In this document: positions 9,001 through 47,869 of the stretch, piece after piece
Numbering within the stretch: position 1 is the first letter of the stretch
Layout of the letters: each line of letters starts with the position of its first letter
DNA from: Nitrospiraceae bacterium
Lineage (GTDB): Bacteria > Nitrospirota > Nitrospiria > Nitrospirales > UBA2166
Assembly: GCA_002726235.1 (NCBI GenBank)
Contig: PBSN01000003.1
Coordinates: 1-47,869 of the forward strand
Direction of reading: 5' to 3'
DNA: 47,869 nucleotides
Made by a program: the position numbers

Positions 9001-12000
9001 TTTGATCACGTCGCGCGATATAACCACGCTGACTCTCGAATTGAGATTTTCCTTCGTTCTAATAAACGTCAGACGGTCATGTTCCAAGATCTTGACCTCA
9101 AGCTTGCCCTCGAGGAGGGAGAAGAGATCCGCACAGAGATCAGCACGAAATATGATCGCAAACGCGTGGAACATCTTTTGGCAAATGCGAAATTCGAACT
9201 TGTGGAGTGGTATGCAGATTCTGAAGAACTGCTTGGTCTTGCCCTCGCGAAGAAACCCTAACCAGCAGCTTGAAAACGTTCTTTCTAAAAGGGAGAGGGT
9301 CTGTGACCCTCTCCCTTTTTCTGTTTAGAGTCAGGTAGTTTTCACACGCTCAATGTTGGCGCACAGTGCGAAGAGCAATGTGTTTGTGCGCAACACCACT
9401 CCAACTTTGGCATGAGGCAAAGGGGGGCATACCTTATTAGTTGCTACTTCGCTAACTTTTCGAGACGGGCTGTGTGATTTGAATGAAGTGCCTCATCTTC
9501 ACGAGTTTAGTGATCATCTGTGCCATCATCGCCTCTTGTACTGCCGTTGGGAGCTTGAGGGGCCAGATCAATTTTCGAAAGGTGGGAGCGATGTCTTTAT
9601 TCGCAATGCTCCGAATCACGCGGTAGTAGGGTGGTGGATCTGGCATTTTTTGTCCCAAGAGCCACAGTTGGTCCGTGCTCCATTGGAGCTTTGTAACGAG
9701 ATCGACACAGGTTTCAATGAGGACAGGCCTCAGGTGAGGCTGTACGGACTCTCGGTGAATGGCTCTGAGATTGCGAAGCAAGGCTTTACTCAGATTTTTT
9801 GAAAACGTGAGGTATAACTGCTCTGCTCGCTCGGAAGAACCGACAATTATCCAGCCCGGCACCTGAGGTCTGGTGCCGGGCTTCCCAATCTCTGTGGTAA
9901 TCAGTTCGTGCTGATTGCTGTAGAATGTATAGACACCAGATCTCTCAAGCCGAAAGCGAACTGTGTGCTCAGTAAAGGCCGGAATATGCTTTGTAATGCC
10001 GAGCTTTTCAACGACAAAGCCAAAATCTTCGTTGCTTGTGTTATTGATTCTGACTGTCACCACGGAACCCGTACCGAACTTTGCACTATCGACTATCAGC
10101 ATTGAGGGTTTCCATGTCGCGGCTCCCATATCGGTGAACGCTGTCTCAACGACGTATTCTTGAGCGTTGCCCAGTGCTATTCCTCCGAGAGTTATGGCGA
10201 GTACAATTCCAAGTGTGATCGTCAGAAGACGCGTGGTTCTCATGTCAGCCTCCTCTCATAATTTTCATCGCATATTGCGTTGTGCTACCGTCGATACGCA
10301 AGGCCGGCACCACGTGACGTGAGCATGAATTCTTGGCAGAACCCCCTCCCACTCTGTTTCGTTCGTATGCCGAACTAGAGGTTCATCCGCGCACTGGCAA
10401 CTCTTGGCCTATTTGACTCATGTTATTCTCGCTATTGCAATGGATCGACAGGTTCAAATGCGGGCTATACGTACTGGTTCGCGTGTACTTCAGCAGGCTA
10501 TGTACGAAGCTACGTGGATGGTCATATAATTTGGGTGAGAGAGTTATTTCATCCTGACATTCTACTAGGAAGAACATGGAATGAACTACCTGCCAGAACT
10601 CCTAATCCAATTCTGGGTTGATTATTATACGCTCAAACCAGACGTTCGAGAGACCTACGGCCTCCTTCGTCATGAGGGCCGTCATGAGGGCGAAGACGTC
10701 CTGCATGACCCTATTGCGACTTGGATATTTGATGATCCTAAGGTTAATGTCGCTCAACTTGCGAAATCATTTGTTGCTTGCGGGTATATGGCATGCGACC
10801 ATTGCGCTTTTCCTGAGAAGAGGTTAGGGGCCTGGCAGTTCAAACACATGGATGGAAGCCTTCCTAAGGTGTTTATCAGCGAACTCCACGTGTCTTTGTT
10901 CTCTCCAGAATTCCAAGTTGTGGGGCAAGAATTAATCTGACAGGCTGTAAGGGTTTCAGCGAGTGCTGGGCCTTCTCGGTGTGCGAGTAGCCACGGAGAG
11001 TTTCGTCTGAGCAGTATGAGAGGTTGCGATTCGAGGGCAAATATGGGGCTAGAATGTTCGCATCTAGTTTTCAAGCCAATCACTTTACCGTCGACGCGAA
11101 TGCATTGAATGTGTTGAAGGGGTGCCGAGGTCTTGAATCGCTGAACGAGATGCCAAAGGCCCATGGTTTCCGACTGAATGCGCAAGGTGGAGAAATCAAA
11201 GGGTCTCCAGCCATATCCCTGTTGAGTTTACCGATGGCATCTATACGATTCCATGGTGCTACTATGAATTTGCAAAGCGATATCCCATGCCGATTGGTGA
11301 GATATACCGCGGGTCTATCACGTCGGCCTCAGATAAAATATTTGAAAATTCCTACAGGGAACAGTGAAGAGTTAAGATGAGGGATTTCAAGCCGTATCTG
11401 GATTGGATCGACCAGCGGCACGATACTATGTGTCAATTGGTCATTGAGTGGGCAAATATCAACTCTCACAGTTACAACCTTGCTGGACTCAGTGATTTTC
11501 TAACGTGCCTCCGAACAGCATTCAGTGCATTGGAAGGCGAGATGGAAGACATTGCCCTCGATCCTCATCAGGTGATCAATGCGCGAGGAGAACCCGAAGA
11601 AATATCATTGGGAAGAATGCTCTTCGTTCGGAAACGGCCCTCTGCTCCAATTCAAGTTTTGTTGGGGATTCATCTCGATACGGTGTATCCCGCAGATCAT
11701 CCGTTCCAAAGGGTTATACGTATTGATGATCGGCGGCTACAAGGGCCGGGAGTTGCGGATGCCAAGGGTGGACTGGTTATCCTTCTTACGGCTCTCAATG
11801 CGTTCGAGCGAAGTCCATTGGCAAAGAACATTGGATGGGAGGTATTTCTCAATCCCGATGAAGAGATTGGCTCTCCTGGATCGGCCCCGGTGTTAACCCA
11901 ACGTGCCAAACGGTATCATCTTGGCCTGTTGTTCGAATCAGGGTTGATGAACGGAAACCTGGTCAGTGAACGACAGGGCACCGGAGACTATACGGTCGTT

Positions 12001-45000: not shown

Positions 45001-47869
45001 ACCGTTGAAATCTCGAAAGCGGTTGAGCATGGGAGCAGCGATGTGGTGGTCGCGTCGACTGGTAACATGGGTGCGTCGATTGCAGCATACACCGCTCTGG
45101 CAATGGTGAAAGCAAAAATTTACGTCCCAAGGAGACTTACCGCAAGTGCGAAGATACGACAGATGAAAGGCTATGGGGCAACAGTCAGCTTAGTCAATGG
45201 GGACTATACTCAAGCGATGAAACAGGCAGTTTCAGATTTTGAACGCAAGGGGTTGCACCTTCTTGGAGATTATCCTTATCGCGGGGAAGGTGAAAAAACG
45301 GTAGGCTATGAGATTGTGGATCAGTGTGACGGGAGAGTGTCTCACATCATTGCCCCTATCGGCAATGGCACTTTACTCGCCGGCATCTGGAAGGGTATCA
45401 AGGACTTGGAAAAGGGGGGGCTTATTACTGAAAGGCCTCGACTAGTCGGAGTCCAGGCTTCCGGTTGTCAGCCGGTAGCACGTGCTTTTCTGAGTGACCG
45501 TGAGACTATTATGCCCGTAGTTCCGAGGACCAAGGCGAGTGCAATTGCATGTGGAAACCCTCTCGACGGCCGCAAAGCATTAAAGGCAATACGCGAATCT
45601 GACGGGATGATCCAAGTCGTGAGTGATGCGGAATTGGTAAAGGCTAGGAAATTATTAGCTCAGGAAGAAGGCATCTATGCGGAGTTAGCTGGTGCTGCCC
45701 CGCTTGCTGGACTGCTCAAACTTCTATCAACCTTGAACGCGGGTGCTTGTGTCGTGTTGGTGATCAGTGGAACTGGCCTGAAAGATTGAGGAAGGAGACA
45801 GTGGTGATTTCTGGCATCCTCGCAAACACAGGATGTGCGATTATCCTATCAGTTGGATTGGGTCACGATGTTCAGTAATGTTATGTGGATCAACGTCATG
45901 CTAGCGCTTAGTCAGCGATGCTTGCGATAGGATGGCAGACCACCGCATTCGACCACTCTGCCACCTCCCCAATACTTTGATTTATAATGGCTCTAATCGA
46001 TTTTAGGGATAGGCGGTTCCCAATACTTACTATAGCTCTATCCAATATATTGTTGATTTACAAAGGTTCTTATGTCACGTCAGGAGTATTTACAGACCGT
46101 CGGGTTTGCTGTCTCGCAGTGACTGCCGTAGCGAGGAATGTCGGTACCATTTTTGTCAGAGATCTCCTCAGCCACTTCAAAATCGTCGTTGAGTAGAAGA
46201 TTGGGATCGATTGATATCTCATAGCTGTGCCTGTGAATGGCGTACACTCATAGGAAGATAAGGACGGGCTCGTTCACCTTCATAGATTTGATCTGGGCGA
46301 AACAGCCGGTTATCTTGGAATTGTTCAAAGCAATGCGCAAGCCAGCCAGCGACACGCGCTATGGCGAAGACCGGGGTGAAACAATCAGGCGCAATGCCCA
46401 TAGCACGATATACCAAGCCTGAATATAAATCTAAATTGGCAGACACGCCTTTATGGCTGATCAATTGATCCATGACCCGTTCTACTTCTTGTGCGATCTC
46501 GAACAAGTGAGATTGACCAGTGTGTTCGCATACCTGTTTTGCGTGTCGTTGTAAGATCATTGCACGTGTATCTTTCACCTTATAAATGCGATGTCCGAAT
46601 CCCATAATCCGCTTTTTGGCCGCAAGCTTTTGCTCGATATATGACTGTACCCTGTCTACTGATTCGATCTCTTCCAACATTTTGATGGCCTGCTCATTTG
46701 CGCCCCCATGCAACGAGCCTTTCAGCGTCCCAATGGCTGAAGAAATTACGGAATAAGCATCTGAGAGGGTTGAGGCCGTCACGAGGCCACTAAAGGTTGA
46801 TGCGTTCATGGTGTGTTCCGCGTGGAGGATCAGCGACACATCCAAGATCCGAGCCAGTGATGGATCTGGAACGGTCCCAAACAGCATGTAGAAGAAATTC
46901 TCTGCGTGTGTCAAGTCATCGCGTGGCTGGATTTGTTCGTTGCCGTGCCGAAGCCTCGCATAGGTGGCTACGATTGTTGGAAGCTTGGCAATTAAGCGGA
47001 CAGCTGCCCAGTAGTTGGCCTCTGCATCCTGTACATTTGGCTGTGGATAAAACATCCCAAGAGCGGCCACTGTGGCTTGTAGGGCATCCATTGGATGACC
47101 ATATTCGGGGAGGCATTTGATCAGATCGGTGATCCGATACTTAATCCTGCGGTGATGCGACAAATCGCTATTGAAGGCATCCAGTTCCTTCTGACTGGGA
47201 AGTCGGTTATAGAGTAAGAGGTATGTGGTCTCAGGGAAGGTACTATGTTCTGCTAGTTCCTCAATGCAAATCCCTCGATATTCGAGAATGCCCTTTTGAC
47301 CGTCGACAAAGCTGATTTTCGACCGTGCAGCTGGAACTCCGGCTAATCCTGGGAAAAAGTCATGCATGGCAGTACCGCTCTGCCTCCCTATGGCATGGTG
47401 CACTTTATGTGGTGCGCATCTTAGGCGAACATGCTGCTTTTACTCATCAACAGCGTCCTTAACCCTTCACTCCGTAAATAGATTGGGAAGCAATCGCCGT
47501 ACCAGTAACAATCGCATCTTAATGAGCGTTTTTCCTCTGTGATCGAATCGATGGCACGACCAATCAAACGAATGACGATATTTCGTGTGTGATATCGAGC
47601 AATGTTTTGGAGGGGAAAGGAAAGATGGGTGGAGCGCATGCCCTCCTGGCACTGCGCATACTCTCGCACCATAATTTTTTCTTGCCAGGAGATGTGGCAC
47701 GAAGCTTGCGTTTCAAGAGAGGAGAGCAGGTTGCGTTAATTGCATGAGGGAGGTCATTGATGATGTCCCGAAGGAATTTCCATAGTGCTATGAAAGGAAT
47801 ATGTGGAGGGGTGTTTGCCATCATCGCTCTCATCGCGTTCGTCGATAGCGCGTATGGTGGGGGAGGGTT

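Follow-up and report, generated by a model that had tools for sequence, protein, structure and literature searches.

Two adjoining candidate catabolic units, a variant arginine succinyltransferase operon and a segment for valine, isoleucine and acyl-CoA oxidation, in a marine Nitrospirales genome

Introduction

The arginine succinyltransferase (AST) pathway has appeared in the Nitrospirales without comment: AstA, AstB and AstD are among the UBA2166-specific gene clusters in the supplement of Kop et al. (2025), where they are not discussed, and the energy metabolism of UBA2166 is unknown according to that study. For branched-chain substrates, the excerpted text of Leung et al. gives a 10-fold increase of a putative 2-oxoisovalerate dehydrogenase in nitrite-starved N. 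moscoviensis, and an increase of about 3-fold for methylisocitrate lyase.

The window analysed here is 47,869 nt long and is the whole of contig C3 of a MAG (G000; ∼1.9 Mb [1.87 Mb], 90.65% complete). No NxrA-like gene was found in the host genus, which matches the marine NXR-less family UBA2166, and we infer that the host is a member of this NXR-less lineage. This does not agree with the survey's reading of an autotroph that is a facultative organotroph. The genome encodes rpoN and bd-like oxidases. Distributions were counted in 401 genomes of the order (54 genera in the case of the mutase), and four genus relatives were compared.

Results

The survey had described a single 35-kb island, and NCBIfam and Pfam profiles confirm all of the genes that it listed at their positions. 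Five of these, on the forward strand between 11.4 and 17.9 kb, form the AST operon. The first (11377..12609) encodes an M20 metallo-hydrolase (NF005602, 483.6 bits against a cut-off of 357; PF01546, PF07687) that is a candidate stand-in for AstE, and the second (12628..14043) a divergent class-III aminotransferase (PF00202, 176.5 bits) in the position of AstC, which scores 90.8 with the AstC model TIGR03246, far under the cut-off of 609.95. These are followed by AstA, arginine/ornithine N-succinyltransferase (about 14043..15104; TIGR03243, 345.9 against 284.35; PF04958, 377.8 bits), in an ORF that opens at 13905 and matches the profile from residue 47; AstD, succinylglutamate-semialdehyde dehydrogenase (15035..16570; TIGR03240, 665.3 against 579.3); and AstB, N-succinylarginine dihydrolase (16567..17916; TIGR03241, 589.2 against 538.3). 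A profile search of the host genome gave no AstE_AspA match. Upstream of the operon on the same strand lies a broken DUF1338/HGLS-like pseudogene (10581..11358) with a weak PF07063 match, to which a 293-aa ORF beside astB of the Phycisphaeraceae MAG L038 aligns in three frames at 39–45% identity.

The AST genes are restricted to one genus among the searched genomes. AstB was matched in 3 of the 401 order genomes, all in this genus and two above the cut-off, in keeping with the rarity noted by the survey. The relative G012 likewise has all five genes at 82–85% identity (AstB 82%), and in G008 astB is reduced to a 79-aa 3′ remnant in mid-contig. Outside the genus the closest AstB proteins are 44–55% identical, with a best segment of 64% at one locus. 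The same five-gene order occurs in one Desulfomonile-labelled MAG and one Parachlamydiaceae MAG; aminotransferase homologues 58–60% identical hold the equivalent operon position in Desulfomonile-like MAGs, and of the 23 AstB-query loci fetched from other phyla eight contain an M20 homologue, seven of these together with a full-length AstB match. The operon probably originated outside the order. It is old in the genus, where two species have it intact and a third has a remnant.

The second unit begins at ∼17.96 kb with a forward gene for a sigma-54 enhancer-binding protein of PAS-GAF-AAA+-HTH architecture (17985..19883; PF00158, 231.7 bits; GAF, PAS_7, HTH_8), for which the genus relatives give paralog-level DNA matches only. 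A long forward-strand series follows. It opens with a small STAS-like ORF of 95 aa (20505..20792; PF13466, E = 1.7e-4, under the cut-off) and continues with a 2-oxoacid dehydrogenase, comprising E1-alpha (20820–21899), E1-beta (21896–22900) and E2 (22901–24109), an acetoacetyl-CoA-type thiolase (24091–25293), a 3-hydroxybutyryl-CoA dehydrogenase (Hbd; 25314–26225) and acyl-CoA dehydrogenase 1 (26271–27422), all named by NCBIfam. E1-alpha and E2 fall under the PDH/OGDH-type cut-offs (284.9 against 411 and 345.9 against 449), and we read the complex as the branched-chain type, with models that do not separate branched-chain from pyruvate specificity; an E3 is found in the host genome. Beyond the mutase genes, which are treated below, the series runs on through an SCP-x-type thiolase (30251–31534; NF004982, 664 bits, under the 695 cut-off), its DUF35/OB-fold partner (31531–32010; PF01796, PF12172), the G-protein chaperone MeaB (31982–32746; TIGR00750, 260.4 against 240.75) and acyl-CoA dehydrogenase 2 (32743–33897).

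Genes on the reverse strand come next. Two proteins of unknown function, of 200 and 170 aa (34027..35110), the first weakly SMBP/cytochrome-c-like, have a paralog at 72% on contig C8. They are followed by EtfA (35269–36267) and EtfB (36294–37097), both NCBIfam ETF matches, an ELFV amino-acid dehydrogenase with the motif GPSIGGMR (37115–38230) and ETF-QO (38354–40063, the start ATG read at 40063; PF05187, PF21162). The best solved relatives of the ELFV protein by overall score are glutamate dehydrogenases, and it lacks the Lys at what we take to be the glutamate-binding position of these enzymes. ETF-QO is as uncommon as reported, with matches at E<=1e-30 in 26 of the 401 genomes, of which about 22 resemble orthologues (65–73% identity). 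On the forward strand are then a PrpD-like gene (40479–41885), PrpB (41882–42790; TIGR02317, 384.9 against 354.4), an acyl-CoA synthetase found in profile searches (42907–44652) and an extra ThrC-like PLP enzyme (44662–45789) with two ThrC paralogs on C13. Of the proposed methylcitrate cycle, PrpB stands above its cut-off, whereas the PrpD-like protein is under the PrpD equivalog cut-offs. A second, paralogous citrate synthase on the reverse strand (46219–47403; TIGR01800, 463.6 against 421.3) shares 68% identity with the G012 and C17 citrate synthases, themselves 83% alike, and is a candidate 2-methylcitrate synthase of the unit. The continuation on contig C17 carries a malic enzyme, an acyl-CoA ligase-FadA-FadB-VLCAD operon and an HtrA-like protease.

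TGGTAY-N5-TTGCT is expected 0.04 times in the window and occurs four times, always between genes and directed at an operon. P1 (20407..20422, forward; TGGTAT-N5-TTGCT) precedes the dehydrogenase operon, P2 (40094..40109, reverse) the ETF-QO operon, P3 (40406..40421, forward) prpD-prpB-acs-thrC-like and P4 (47489–47504, reverse) the second citrate synthase. A looser sigma-54 pattern has 12 sites genome-wide and none in the clusters of relatives. A palindromic motif, CGACATATCG, 9 nt, CGATATGTCG (20300..20328), lies about 80–107 nt upstream of P1; CGAGATATCG (40324..40333) lies in the divergent P2/P3 region, and a further copy at 47576–47585 upstream of P4. There are 25 copies of CGANATATCG in the 1.87-Mb genome, and the four on C3 are each 72–107 nt upstream of a sigma-54 promoter (P1, P3 and P4; the distance to P2 is about 215–224 nt). 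On C17 CGANATATCG stands about 79–88 nt upstream of a one-mismatch −24/−12 site before the FadAB operon. We infer from this arrangement that the PAS-GAF activator would control all of the second unit through five promoters that share the upstream motif. The AST operon and the second unit appear to be separately regulated.

The survey had allowed that the genes might not be expressed. A single vent sample yielded two RNA libraries whose contigs span the dehydrogenase operon at 99–100% identity; they start at 20451 and 20502, just 3′ of P1, and cover the STAS-like ORF. Their depth is 20–47 and 13–17 over 20.7–24 kb and 0–5 over the AST genes, with the reservation that RNA libraries may contain DNA and that contig depth reflects expression poorly.

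The AST operon would convert arginine and succinyl-CoA to glutamate, succinate, CO2 and 2 NH3, with the divergent transaminase standing in for AstC and the M20 enzyme for AstE. In the second unit, valine and isoleucine would be deaminated by the ELFV dehydrogenase, and the dehydrogenase complex would turn their 2-oxoacids into acyl-CoAs. A Phe/Gln-type mutase would rearrange isobutyryl-CoA to butyryl-CoA, which an acyl-CoA dehydrogenase, FadB, Hbd and thiolase would oxidise to two acetyl-CoA. 2-Methylbutyryl-CoA would yield acetyl-CoA and propionyl-CoA, and the second citrate synthase, PrpD, aconitase and PrpB would carry the latter to pyruvate and succinate. ETF and ETF-QO are predicted to pass electrons from the acyl-CoA dehydrogenases on to quinone. 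The window contains no enoyl-CoA hydratase; FadB on C17 is the sole enzyme of this kind found, so this step relies on the C3–C17 join. The complete oxidation route that had been proposed does not hold: neither methylcrotonyl-CoA carboxylase (MCC) nor propionyl-CoA carboxylase was found in the genome, whose only carboxyltransferases are AccA and AccD; the leucine branch is incomplete because no MCC was found; and neither AstE nor a recognisable arginine importer was found in the genome.

Some of these gaps are relevant to the possibility that the cell burns amino acids and acyl-CoAs derived from its own protein and lipid during starvation and does not grow on arginine or branched-chain amino acids from outside. 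The starvation rises in N. moscoviensis are read as internal amino acid use in the excerpted text of Leung et al., there is an HtrA-like protease within the unit, and, as with the arginine importer, the search for a Liv-type amino-acid ABC system was negative, the only BPD_transp_2 permeases found in the genome being neighbours of urease. However, NSS (LeuT-like), DAACS, SSF and TRAP transporters are present, the acyl-CoA synthetase and AMP-ligase of the unit point to free acids from outside, a dedicated sensor-regulator with five promoters fits a response to substrate, and no lithotrophic energy source is known for the host. We consider purely internal recycling less likely than use of outside substrates, though it is the most serious of the alternatives.

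The mutase is encoded on the forward strand by a large subunit (27422..29017; TIGR00641, 726 bits) and a small B12-binding subunit (29853..30254; TIGR00640, 157 bits) in which the DxHxxG motif reads GLDGHDRG. Between them lies an MBL-fold hydrolase gene (29014..29856; PF00753), found in the same place in every order cluster examined, with homologues 67–71% identical. Aligned to PDB 1REQ, 5REQ and 4R3U, the large subunit carries Phe61 and Gln179, a pattern of the isobutyryl-CoA mutase type and not of the Tyr/Arg methylmalonyl-CoA mutase (MCM) type; this assignment presumes the residue roles of Tyr89 and Arg207 in MCM. The usual annotation in Nitrospira is a true MCM, here serving a propionate/methylmalonyl pathway, and the genes are given as mcmA1A2 in one Nitrospira paper; among its named solved relatives MCMs (456–436 bits) rank directly behind 2-hydroxyisobutyryl-CoA mutase, and the MCM equivalog NF006944 matches with 603 bits. 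That score is under the cut-off of 876, though, and Phe/Gln is present in 27 of 27 cluster-type mutases, whereas Tyr/Arg occurs in PDB 1REQ and in both of two paralogs from the same order. The missing propionyl-CoA carboxylase, and a propionyl-CoA route already supplied by PrpB and PrpD, also argue against a true MCM, which we regard as improbable here.

Most of the second unit is a reordered version of a cluster that many genomes of the order carry. The core (dehydrogenase, thiolase, hbd, B12 mutase, MeaB, PrpD/PrpB) is syntenic with it, at 64–86% identity for E1-alpha, E1-beta and E2 and 61–72% for PrpD and PrpB, and the mutase is present in 161 of the 401 genomes and 41 of 54 genera. One other family has a near-identical gene order, on contig C28 of G007 (family f4), at 64–89% identity and with ETF and ETF-QO included; the order of thiolase, Hbd and acyl-CoA dehydrogenase 1 is shared, and the SCP-x-type thiolase and its partner are 88–89% identical in this family. 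ELFV, the second acyl-CoA dehydrogenase, the second citrate synthase, the malic enzyme and the ligase-FadA-FadB-VLCAD operon are additions to the order-typical cluster. The dehydrogenase/mutase/Prp core is not new to the order. RpoB of the host is 71% identical to those of families f2 and f4, against 81% between these families, and the corresponding values for the mutase are 77% and 83%. The host has the longest end branch of the mutase tree (0.32), in which 17 of 26 inner branches are open, and retention and old transfer are not told apart by it.

The second unit passes the end of the contig and continues for ∼11.3 kb on C17, a total of ∼41 kb; the last 99 nt of C3 (47771..47869) recur without change at the start of C17, and the join rests on this overlap and on synteny, not on spanning reads. 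Homology to G012 stops about 40 nt past the astB stop codon. The stretch from 17.96 to 46.2 kb has no DNA match in any of the four genus relatives, paralogs excepted, and positions 1–11.3 kb of C17 are missing from all four; G000 is thus alone among five genus members in carrying the unit. In G012 astB adjoins CBS-citrate synthase-putA, and the C17 counterparts of these genes are 93%, 83% and 79% identical, such that the unit sits between those flanks in G000. At 20135..20192, 58 nt from within E1-alpha (20933–20990) recur in inverted orientation (97%), and a 47-aa reverse-strand ORF (20102–20245) repeats an E1-alpha peptide; the repeat is probably a rearrangement scar.

Misassembly or misbinning, by which DNA of a co-occurring NS-4 or Nitrospiraceae organism was wrongly joined to the host's, is very unlikely. 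It would account for the 64–89% identity of the core to NS-4/Nitrospiraceae clusters and for the contigs of two independent DNA runs that start at 17952 and 17965 with no listed piece bridging the left junction, and the window is an entire contig of a MAG. Nevertheless, the two outer flanks adjoin in G012, and two accidental joins at precisely these points are highly improbable; depth is even across AST and the second unit in the independent runs X4 and X6; identity is at most 89% in every sampled order genome and the mutase has a long branch like the host core; and GC3 of the unit is inside the genome range. The syntenic flanks and even depth support its placement in the host genome. That everything arrived together, as one recently acquired 35-kb island from outside the order bringing arginine and branched-chain oxidation, is the least probable reading: the genes do lie side by side and most order genomes lack them (AstB as above; ETF-QO present in about 6%), but AST is common to G012 with a remnant in G008 and the rest is unique to G000, the remainder is syntenic with order-native clusters, AST GC3 (0.502) equals the genome mean (0.489), and searches gave no integrase, tRNA or flanking direct repeat.

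Discussion

We favour, with some reserve, two adjoining catabolic units with different histories, a variant AST operon and a ∼41-kb segment for oxidation of valine, isoleucine and fatty acids that runs past position 45789 into the second citrate synthase and C17. The evidence supports a real and coherent catabolic potential, within which every enzyme activity and the uptake of outside substrates are predicted from sequence. Canonical AST systems have AstE and AstC; in the operon described here an M20 hydrolase and a divergent aminotransferase fill those places.

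Gene content and extent of the catabolic segment

The window is contig C3 in its entirety (47,869 bp), and its catabolic genes are better described as two units: an old, genus-level variant of the arginine succinyltransferase (AST) operon, and a mosaic, sigma-54-wired version of a gene cluster that is common in the order. Mrp and Nuo subunits, prfC and egtD occupy 1–10 kb. The AST operon follows at 11.4–17.9 kb, with genes for an M20 hydrolase, a class-III aminotransferase, AstA, AstD and AstB. The second unit opens with a PAS-GAF sigma-54 activator (18.0–19.9 kb), and continues within 20.8–33.9 kb with, in order, E1-alpha, E1-beta, E2, thiolase, Hbd, acyl-CoA dehydrogenase, the mutase large subunit, an MBL-fold protein, the mutase B12 subunit, an SCP-x thiolase, a DUF35 protein, MeaB and a second acyl-CoA dehydrogenase. 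Two proteins without assigned function, EtfA, EtfB, an ELFV dehydrogenase and ETF:quinone oxidoreductase (ETF-QO) are encoded on the minus strand at 34.0–40.1 kb; PrpD-like, PrpB, acyl-CoA synthetase and ThrC-like genes lie at 40.5–45.8 kb, and a citrate synthase on the minus strand at 46.2–47.4 kb.

Scans of the window's ORFs (43 with NCBIfam, 20 with Pfam) agree with the gene inventory in the survey's finding, which had read these genes as one 35-kb island conferring organotrophy on a lithoautotroph. The genes are indeed present, and those of both units belong to this genome, but they form two units in a host of an apparently nitrite oxidoreductase (NXR)-less lineage. The predicted regulon, the re-reading of the mutase and the proposed AST variant are new; branched-chain catabolic genes in Nitrospirales are known.

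From 17.96 to 46.2 kb there is no DNA counterpart, paralogs aside, in any of four genus relatives, and homology to one of them, G012, stops ∼40 nt past astB. The last 99 nt of C3 are the first 99 nt of contig C17, whose first 11.3 kb (1–11.3 kb; HtrA-like protease, malic enzyme, AMP-ligase, FadA, FadB with hydratase and dehydrogenase, VLCAD-like dehydrogenase and a C92 protein) are also missing from all four relatives. Beyond this, a CBS protein, a citrate synthase and PutA on C17 are 93%, 83% and 79% identical to G012 genes, with the bifunctional PutA following the segment (C17:13332–16349). The genome-specific segment is thus ∼41 kb long and lies between astB and the CBS gene. The window's citrate synthase was considered as the orthologue of the synthase that follows astB in G012, which would make the segment a 28-kb insertion, and was rejected as it is a 68% paralog and the orthologue is on C17.

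The segment ends carry no direct repeats of 9 nt or longer, the window has no tRNA, and no integrase or transposase family was found among the scanned ORFs of the window and C17. DNA contigs of two independent public sequencing runs begin at 17952 and 17965, which is the left edge of the segment, and none of the contigs listed bridges this junction at ∼17.96 kb; such starts would fit the presence in the same samples of strains with and without the segment.

Two further features were noted. A 200-aa SMBP/cytochrome-c-like protein (34027–34629) has a 72% paralog on contig C8 and DNA matches in relatives G008 and G016, and is the only part of 20–40 kb to give any match in the genus relatives. An exact 99-nt inverted repeat, at 2710–2808 and at the right end of C17, lies in paralogous nuoM-like genes; G012 contigs break at the same place, and the two copies would enclose ∼84 kb (C3 from 2.8 kb on, plus C17).

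The AST operon

AstB is a full-length member of its family (1–443; TIGR03241, 589.2 versus a cut-off of 538.3), AstD also scores above its cut-off (TIGR03240, 665.3 versus 579.3), and AstA belongs to the TIGR03243 subfamily (345.9 versus 284.35; PF04958, 377.8 bits) while falling under the cut-off of the equivalog TIGR03244 (329.2 versus 391). The aminotransferase is not an AstC orthologue (TIGR03246, 90.8 versus 609.95) and matches only the general family PF00202. No AstE (PF04952, AstE_AspA) match occurs anywhere in this 90.65%-complete genome, and the hydrolase of the operon is an M20 enzyme (NF005602).

AstB was found in three of 401 genomes of the order, every one within the host genus. 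G012 has all five genes on a syntenic contig, at 82–85% protein identity. In G008 astB is reduced to a 79-aa 3′ remnant (C110:13626–13865, in locus L006) that is 85% identical and sits amid unrelated genes, a direct sign that AST genes have been lost in the genus, and in G004 nuo, prfC and egtD are present with no AST genes at that place. Within the genus the operon is thus old and undergoing loss.

Outside the genus the nearest AstB proteins share 44–55% identity (one locus has a 64% best segment) and come from MAGs labelled Desulfomonile/Desulfomonilaceae, Phycisphaerae, Rickettsiales, Chlamydiota and others. Two outside MAGs have the identical order M20-aminotransferase-astA-astD-astB. Among 23 loci fetched with the AstB query, eight contain an M20 homologue, and seven of these eight retain a full-length AstB match; the M20/aminotransferase form was seen in MAGs of Desulfobacterota, Chlamydiota, Rickettsiales and others. 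The gene neighbourhood thus points to a recurrent AST variant in which the M20 enzyme would perform the desuccinylase step. Our literature searches found neither an M20 enzyme described as the desuccinylase nor a link between Nitrospirales and the succinyltransferase. An M20-for-AstE operon in several phyla is a candidate enzyme-family replacement in a textbook pathway.

Upstream of the operon, at 10581–11358, a DUF1338/HGLS-like gene is broken into three frames, and an intact 293-aa homologue adjoins astB in a Phycisphaeraceae MAG.

Kinship and distribution of the ∼41-kb segment

The cluster of branched-chain catabolic genes is common in the order. The mutase large subunit is present in 161 of 401 genomes (a tally that includes the unpublished G280 and G394, on which nothing claimed here depends) and in 41 of 54 genera at 70–80% identity, and in none of the four genus relatives. 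Genes around it are syntenic in two other families, f2 and f4. In its usual form, as in G007:C28, G212:C4 and G170, the cluster comprises the 2-oxoacid dehydrogenase, thiolase, hbd, mutase, MBL-fold gene, MeaB, prpD, prpB, prpC and acs, and the segment described here has the same genes in the same order at 60–89% identity. In G007:C28 (f4) the arrangement between E1-alpha and acs is nearly identical, at 64–89% identity, and includes acd1, the SCP-x/DUF35 pair, ETF and ETF-QO; the ETF/ETF-QO form is common to this genome, G007 and G025.

Unlike its relatives, however, this cluster sits in an NXR-less genus that is otherwise without it. Additions here are a sigma-54 activator with its promoters, the ELFV dehydrogenase, a second acyl-CoA dehydrogenase and the FadAB-VLCAD operon, and the in-operon prpC, which in relatives lies between prpB and acs, has been lost. 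At E≤1e-30, ETF-QO matches were obtained in 26 of 401 genomes, and about 22 of these look like orthologues. The additions are distributed differently: 13 of 280 other genomes have ELFV orthologues (56–61%), and all 13 belong to family f3; the ligase-FadA-FadB-VLCAD operon has one close counterpart, in G189 (f3) at 68–78%. FadB matches were obtained in 172 of 401 genomes, and all but that of G189 are either 35–42% identical or cover the dehydrogenase half only.

RpoB of the host is 71% identical to that of f2 and f4, which are 81% identical to each other; the corresponding mutase values are 77% and 83%. RpoB was used as marker after prfC was dropped, an orthologue having been found in one of five order genomes tested. 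The mutase tree is a near-polytomy that gives no placement, with the host on the longest end branch. The GC and GC3 of the module show no sign of foreign origin (mean GC3 0.532 versus 0.489 for the genome, sd 0.057), and the syntenic Nuo/prfC flank exceeds both, at 0.563. From the synteny in f2 and f4, the mutase and RpoB identities and the long host branch, the core of the segment looks native to the order and old on the host lineage, retained or transferred long ago, and not a recent import.

The acyl-CoA mutase

The mutase does not qualify as a methylmalonyl-CoA mutase (MCM), scoring 603 versus 876 with NF006944 and lacking the Tyr/Arg pair. Alignment to solved structures places Phe61 and Gln179 at the positions of Tyr89 and Arg207 of P. 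shermanii MCM, which are Tyr and Arg in 1REQ; PDB 5REQ also carries Phe at the Tyr89 place. We take Tyr and Arg in MCM to act at the site of the substrate carboxylate, and a Phe/Gln pair presumably marks isobutyryl-CoA mutase. All 27 cluster-type sequences from the order have Phe/Gln, and two 55%-identical paralogs in f2 have Tyr/Arg. By overall score the protein is closest to 2-hydroxyisobutyryl-CoA mutase (524 bits, versus 456 for MCM and 275 for IcmF; PDB 4XC6 was among the structures), but the Ile/Asp pair of the hydroxyisobutyryl enzyme is missing, with Phe61 and Ala88 in its place. The features found are instead those of the IcmAB type: split subunits, DxHxxG in the small subunit, a MeaB partner (TIGR00750, 260.4 versus 240.75) and the Phe/Gln pair. 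Reading the enzyme as an isobutyryl-CoA mutase would explain the presence of Hbd and an acetoacetyl-CoA thiolase in the cluster.

The Phe/Gln pattern suggests that the routinely repeated annotation 'methylmalonyl-CoA mutase' may be wrong across the order, which bears on 161 of 401 genomes, nitrite oxidisers included. Valine carbon would then pass through butyryl-CoA to two acetyl-CoA, an unrecognised route in ∼40% of order genomes, and many Nitrospira could channel valine or isobutyrate into acetyl-CoA, with a bearing on nitrifier mixotrophy and starvation survival. Our literature searches found no substantive link between isobutyryl-CoA mutase and Nitrospira.

The MBL-fold hydrolase between the subunit genes (29014–29856) is YtnP/lactonase-like and under cut-off. 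A gene of this kind is found between the mutase genes in seven of seven clusters (the host, G212, G184, G170, G011, G028 and G007; order loci L015, L017, L019, L020, L021 and L055) at 67–71% identity.

Other enzymes and pathway completeness

E1-alpha, E1-beta and E2 of the 2-oxoacid dehydrogenase are in the window, and E3 is at C8:614020–615390 beside GcvH (TIGR01350, 510.1 versus 408.8). E1 and E2 match PDH/OGDH-type models only, mostly under cut-offs, and there are two other E1 sets in the genome; context and the annotation in N. moscoviensis favour the branched-chain type. The ELFV protein scores best with glutamate dehydrogenases, yet has GPSIGGMR, with Ile at the place of a Lys that in glutamate dehydrogenases presumably binds glutamate. 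ETF-QO is a member of its family, with 4Fe-4S and quinone-binding domains (PF05187, 87.1 bits; PF21162, 84.5 bits), and EtfA and EtfB give family matches under equivalog cut-offs.

PrpB is likewise a family member (TIGR02317, 384.9 versus 354.4). The PrpD-like protein has MmgE/PrpD Pfam domains (281 and 156 bits) and scores 153–200 with PrpD equivalogs versus cut-offs of 458–950; its gene always adjoins prpB in the order clusters examined. The citrate synthase paralog in the window scores 463.6 versus 421.3 with TIGR01800. From the retrieved parts of Leung et al. and of PMC12542776, Nitrospira was already known to have the dehydrogenase, prpCBD and 'mcm' genes, and those of Leung et al. report that a Nitrospira dehydrogenase and lyase are induced by starvation.

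Neither propionyl-CoA nor methylcrotonyl-CoA carboxylase was found, the sole carboxyltransferases of the genome being AccA and AccD. The genome encodes bd-like oxidases and transporters of the NSS (LeuT-like), DAACS, SSF, TRAP and BCCT types; no SBP_bac_3 protein and no Liv-type amino-acid ABC system was found in it. Peripla_BP_6 matches were rejected as a Liv system, being a urea-type ABC system by the urease, an orphan binding protein, a fusion protein and an LppC-like lipoprotein. Routes for valine and isoleucine are plausible; a leucine route is not.

A predicted sigma-54 regulon

The pattern TGGTAY-N5-TTGCT matches four times in the window versus 0.04 expected, and all four sites are intergenic, each oriented towards an operon: P1 at 20407 (+) ahead of the 2-oxoacid dehydrogenase operon, P2 at 40109 (−) ahead of ETF-QO, P3 at 40406 (+) ahead of prpD-prpB-acs, and P4 at 47504 (−) ahead of citrate synthase. 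A looser pattern has 12 sites in the whole genome, and no pattern sites were found in the corresponding places of relatives' clusters. A shared motif, CGANATATCG, lies 72–107 nt upstream of P1, P3 and P4 and ∼215–224 nt upstream of P2, which also has a deletion variant at ∼100 nt; on C17 it is found ∼79–88 nt upstream of a one-mismatch −24/−12 site ahead of the FadAB operon. With the enhancer-binding activator (PF00158, 231.7 bits) and rpoN (TIGR02395, 429.1 versus 277.35), the elements of a sigma-54 regulon are thus present, and control of the operons is predicted from sequence. P1 is followed first by a 95-aa ORF that is weakly STAS-like.

Upstream of P1, a 58-nt inverted duplicate (20135–20192; 97%) copies a coding piece of E1-alpha (20933–20990), and probably remains from the rearrangement by which activator and promoter were put in position.

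A host lineage apparently without NXR

The genome is 1.87 Mb in 27 contigs, contains ATP-citrate lyase, and belongs to one of four sampled families of the order, f1, which consists of five genomes of a single genus (1.9–2.3 Mb). With TIGR03479 (type II DMSO-reductase alpha), G170 (f2) gave an NxrA-sized ORF and G007 (f4) an NxrA-like match at a contig end, and no NxrA was found in the host, G004 (98% complete) or G012 (96%); the query is a weak one and the genomes are 90–98% complete. PF00384 and TIGR01660 were unusable as NXR probes, since even G170 and G007 gave no NxrA or NxrB match with them. The four molybdoenzymes of the host are NasA/Fdh-like, NuoG, NuoG-like and AioA-like, and a Pfam scan of 19 large ORFs (∼1,000–1,400 aa) gave no NxrA-type enzyme; two of these ORFs match no Pfam family, and they are not NxrA either.

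According to the retrieved parts of Kop et al. 2025 (PMC12342949), UBA2166, with four genomes in that data set, is marine, has the rTCA cycle and is the sole Nitrospirales family without NXR, and its way of life is given as unknown. The retrieved supplement lists, among UBA2166-specific gene clusters, AstB in three genomes and AstA and AstD in two each, and these counts mirror our own. As no NxrA was found in three genus members and the AST counts mirror each other, we infer that f1 is UBA2166. Kop et al. was the only literature on the family that we found, and amino-acid and fatty-acid catabolism are not discussed in its retrieved parts.

Several other loci were seen in the genome. An AioA-like arsenite-oxidase large subunit (C13:60661–63366; L141:5674–8367; TIGR02693, 428.8 versus 359.05) with Rieske_3 and molybdopterin domains lies between two di-haem cytochrome c peroxidase/MauG-like genes and could serve as an electron-donor system; matches of similar size occur in G004 and G170. 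C12 carries urease and a urea ABC system (urt), C14 nasA-nirBD (assimilatory nitrate and nitrite reductases) and C22 a DabA carbon transporter; the genome also encodes B12-dependent MetH and a class II RNR. C26 and C24 are composition outliers (GC 25.5%, GC3 0.135, and GC 37.2%, versus ∼49% for the genome) and could represent contaminating or mobile DNA within the bin.

Occurrence and possible expression

Part of 14.0–24.0 kb was found in 20 public runs from 14 studies of marine, seawater and hydrothermal-vent metagenomes. The depth of DNA contigs is even across the AST operon and the module in two runs, X4 (∼2.3–7, mostly 5–6) and X6 (0–7.6, with uncovered bins). Two RNA libraries from one vent sample have depths of 20–47 and 13–17 over 20.7–24 kb, with one uncovered bin in the second; AST genes in the same libraries are at 0–5, and uncovered parts are not taken as a sign of silence. 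The contigs of the RNA libraries begin at 20451 and 20502, which hints at transcription from P1, although RNA libraries can hold DNA.

Tentatively, and as a reading we consider somewhat short of probable, the NXR-less UBA2166-like lineage may have facultatively or mainly organotrophic members that at vents induce a sigma-54 regulon to respire valine, isoleucine, short branched acids and fatty acids, with the order's 'methylmalonyl-CoA mutase' being an isobutyryl-CoA mutase. A catabolic block with a predicted regulon, seen in RNA libraries, gives a testable idea of the diet of at least one UBA2166 species.

Comparison with known systems

The arginine succinyltransferase pathway is known from astCADBE of E. 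coli and the aru genes of Pseudomonas. As there, orthologues of AstA, AstD and AstB share an operon with a transaminase and a hydrolase, and the same five chemical steps are possible; but the M20 hydrolase stands in place of AstE, a distant class-III aminotransferase extended at its N terminus by ∼75 aa in place of AstC, and the order is hydrolase-transaminase-A-D-B, unlike that of E. coli. Isobutyryl-CoA mutase is known as IcmA/IcmB with MeaB and as the fused IcmF. The host enzyme resembles IcmA/IcmB in its split large and small subunits, DxHxxG motif, MeaB partner and Phe/Gln at both substrate-carboxylate positions, and differs in the MBL-fold gene between its subunit genes. The bkd operon of Bacillus subtilis is under the sigma-54 (SigL) activator BkdR, and here too a putative branched-chain 2-oxoacid dehydrogenase and an amino-acid dehydrogenase accompany a sigma-54 enhancer-binding protein that is predicted to control them. 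The gene set and phylum differ, however, and in this genome five predicted promoters span ∼41 kb, with ETF/ETF-QO, the methylcitrate genes and beta-oxidation among the functions covered.
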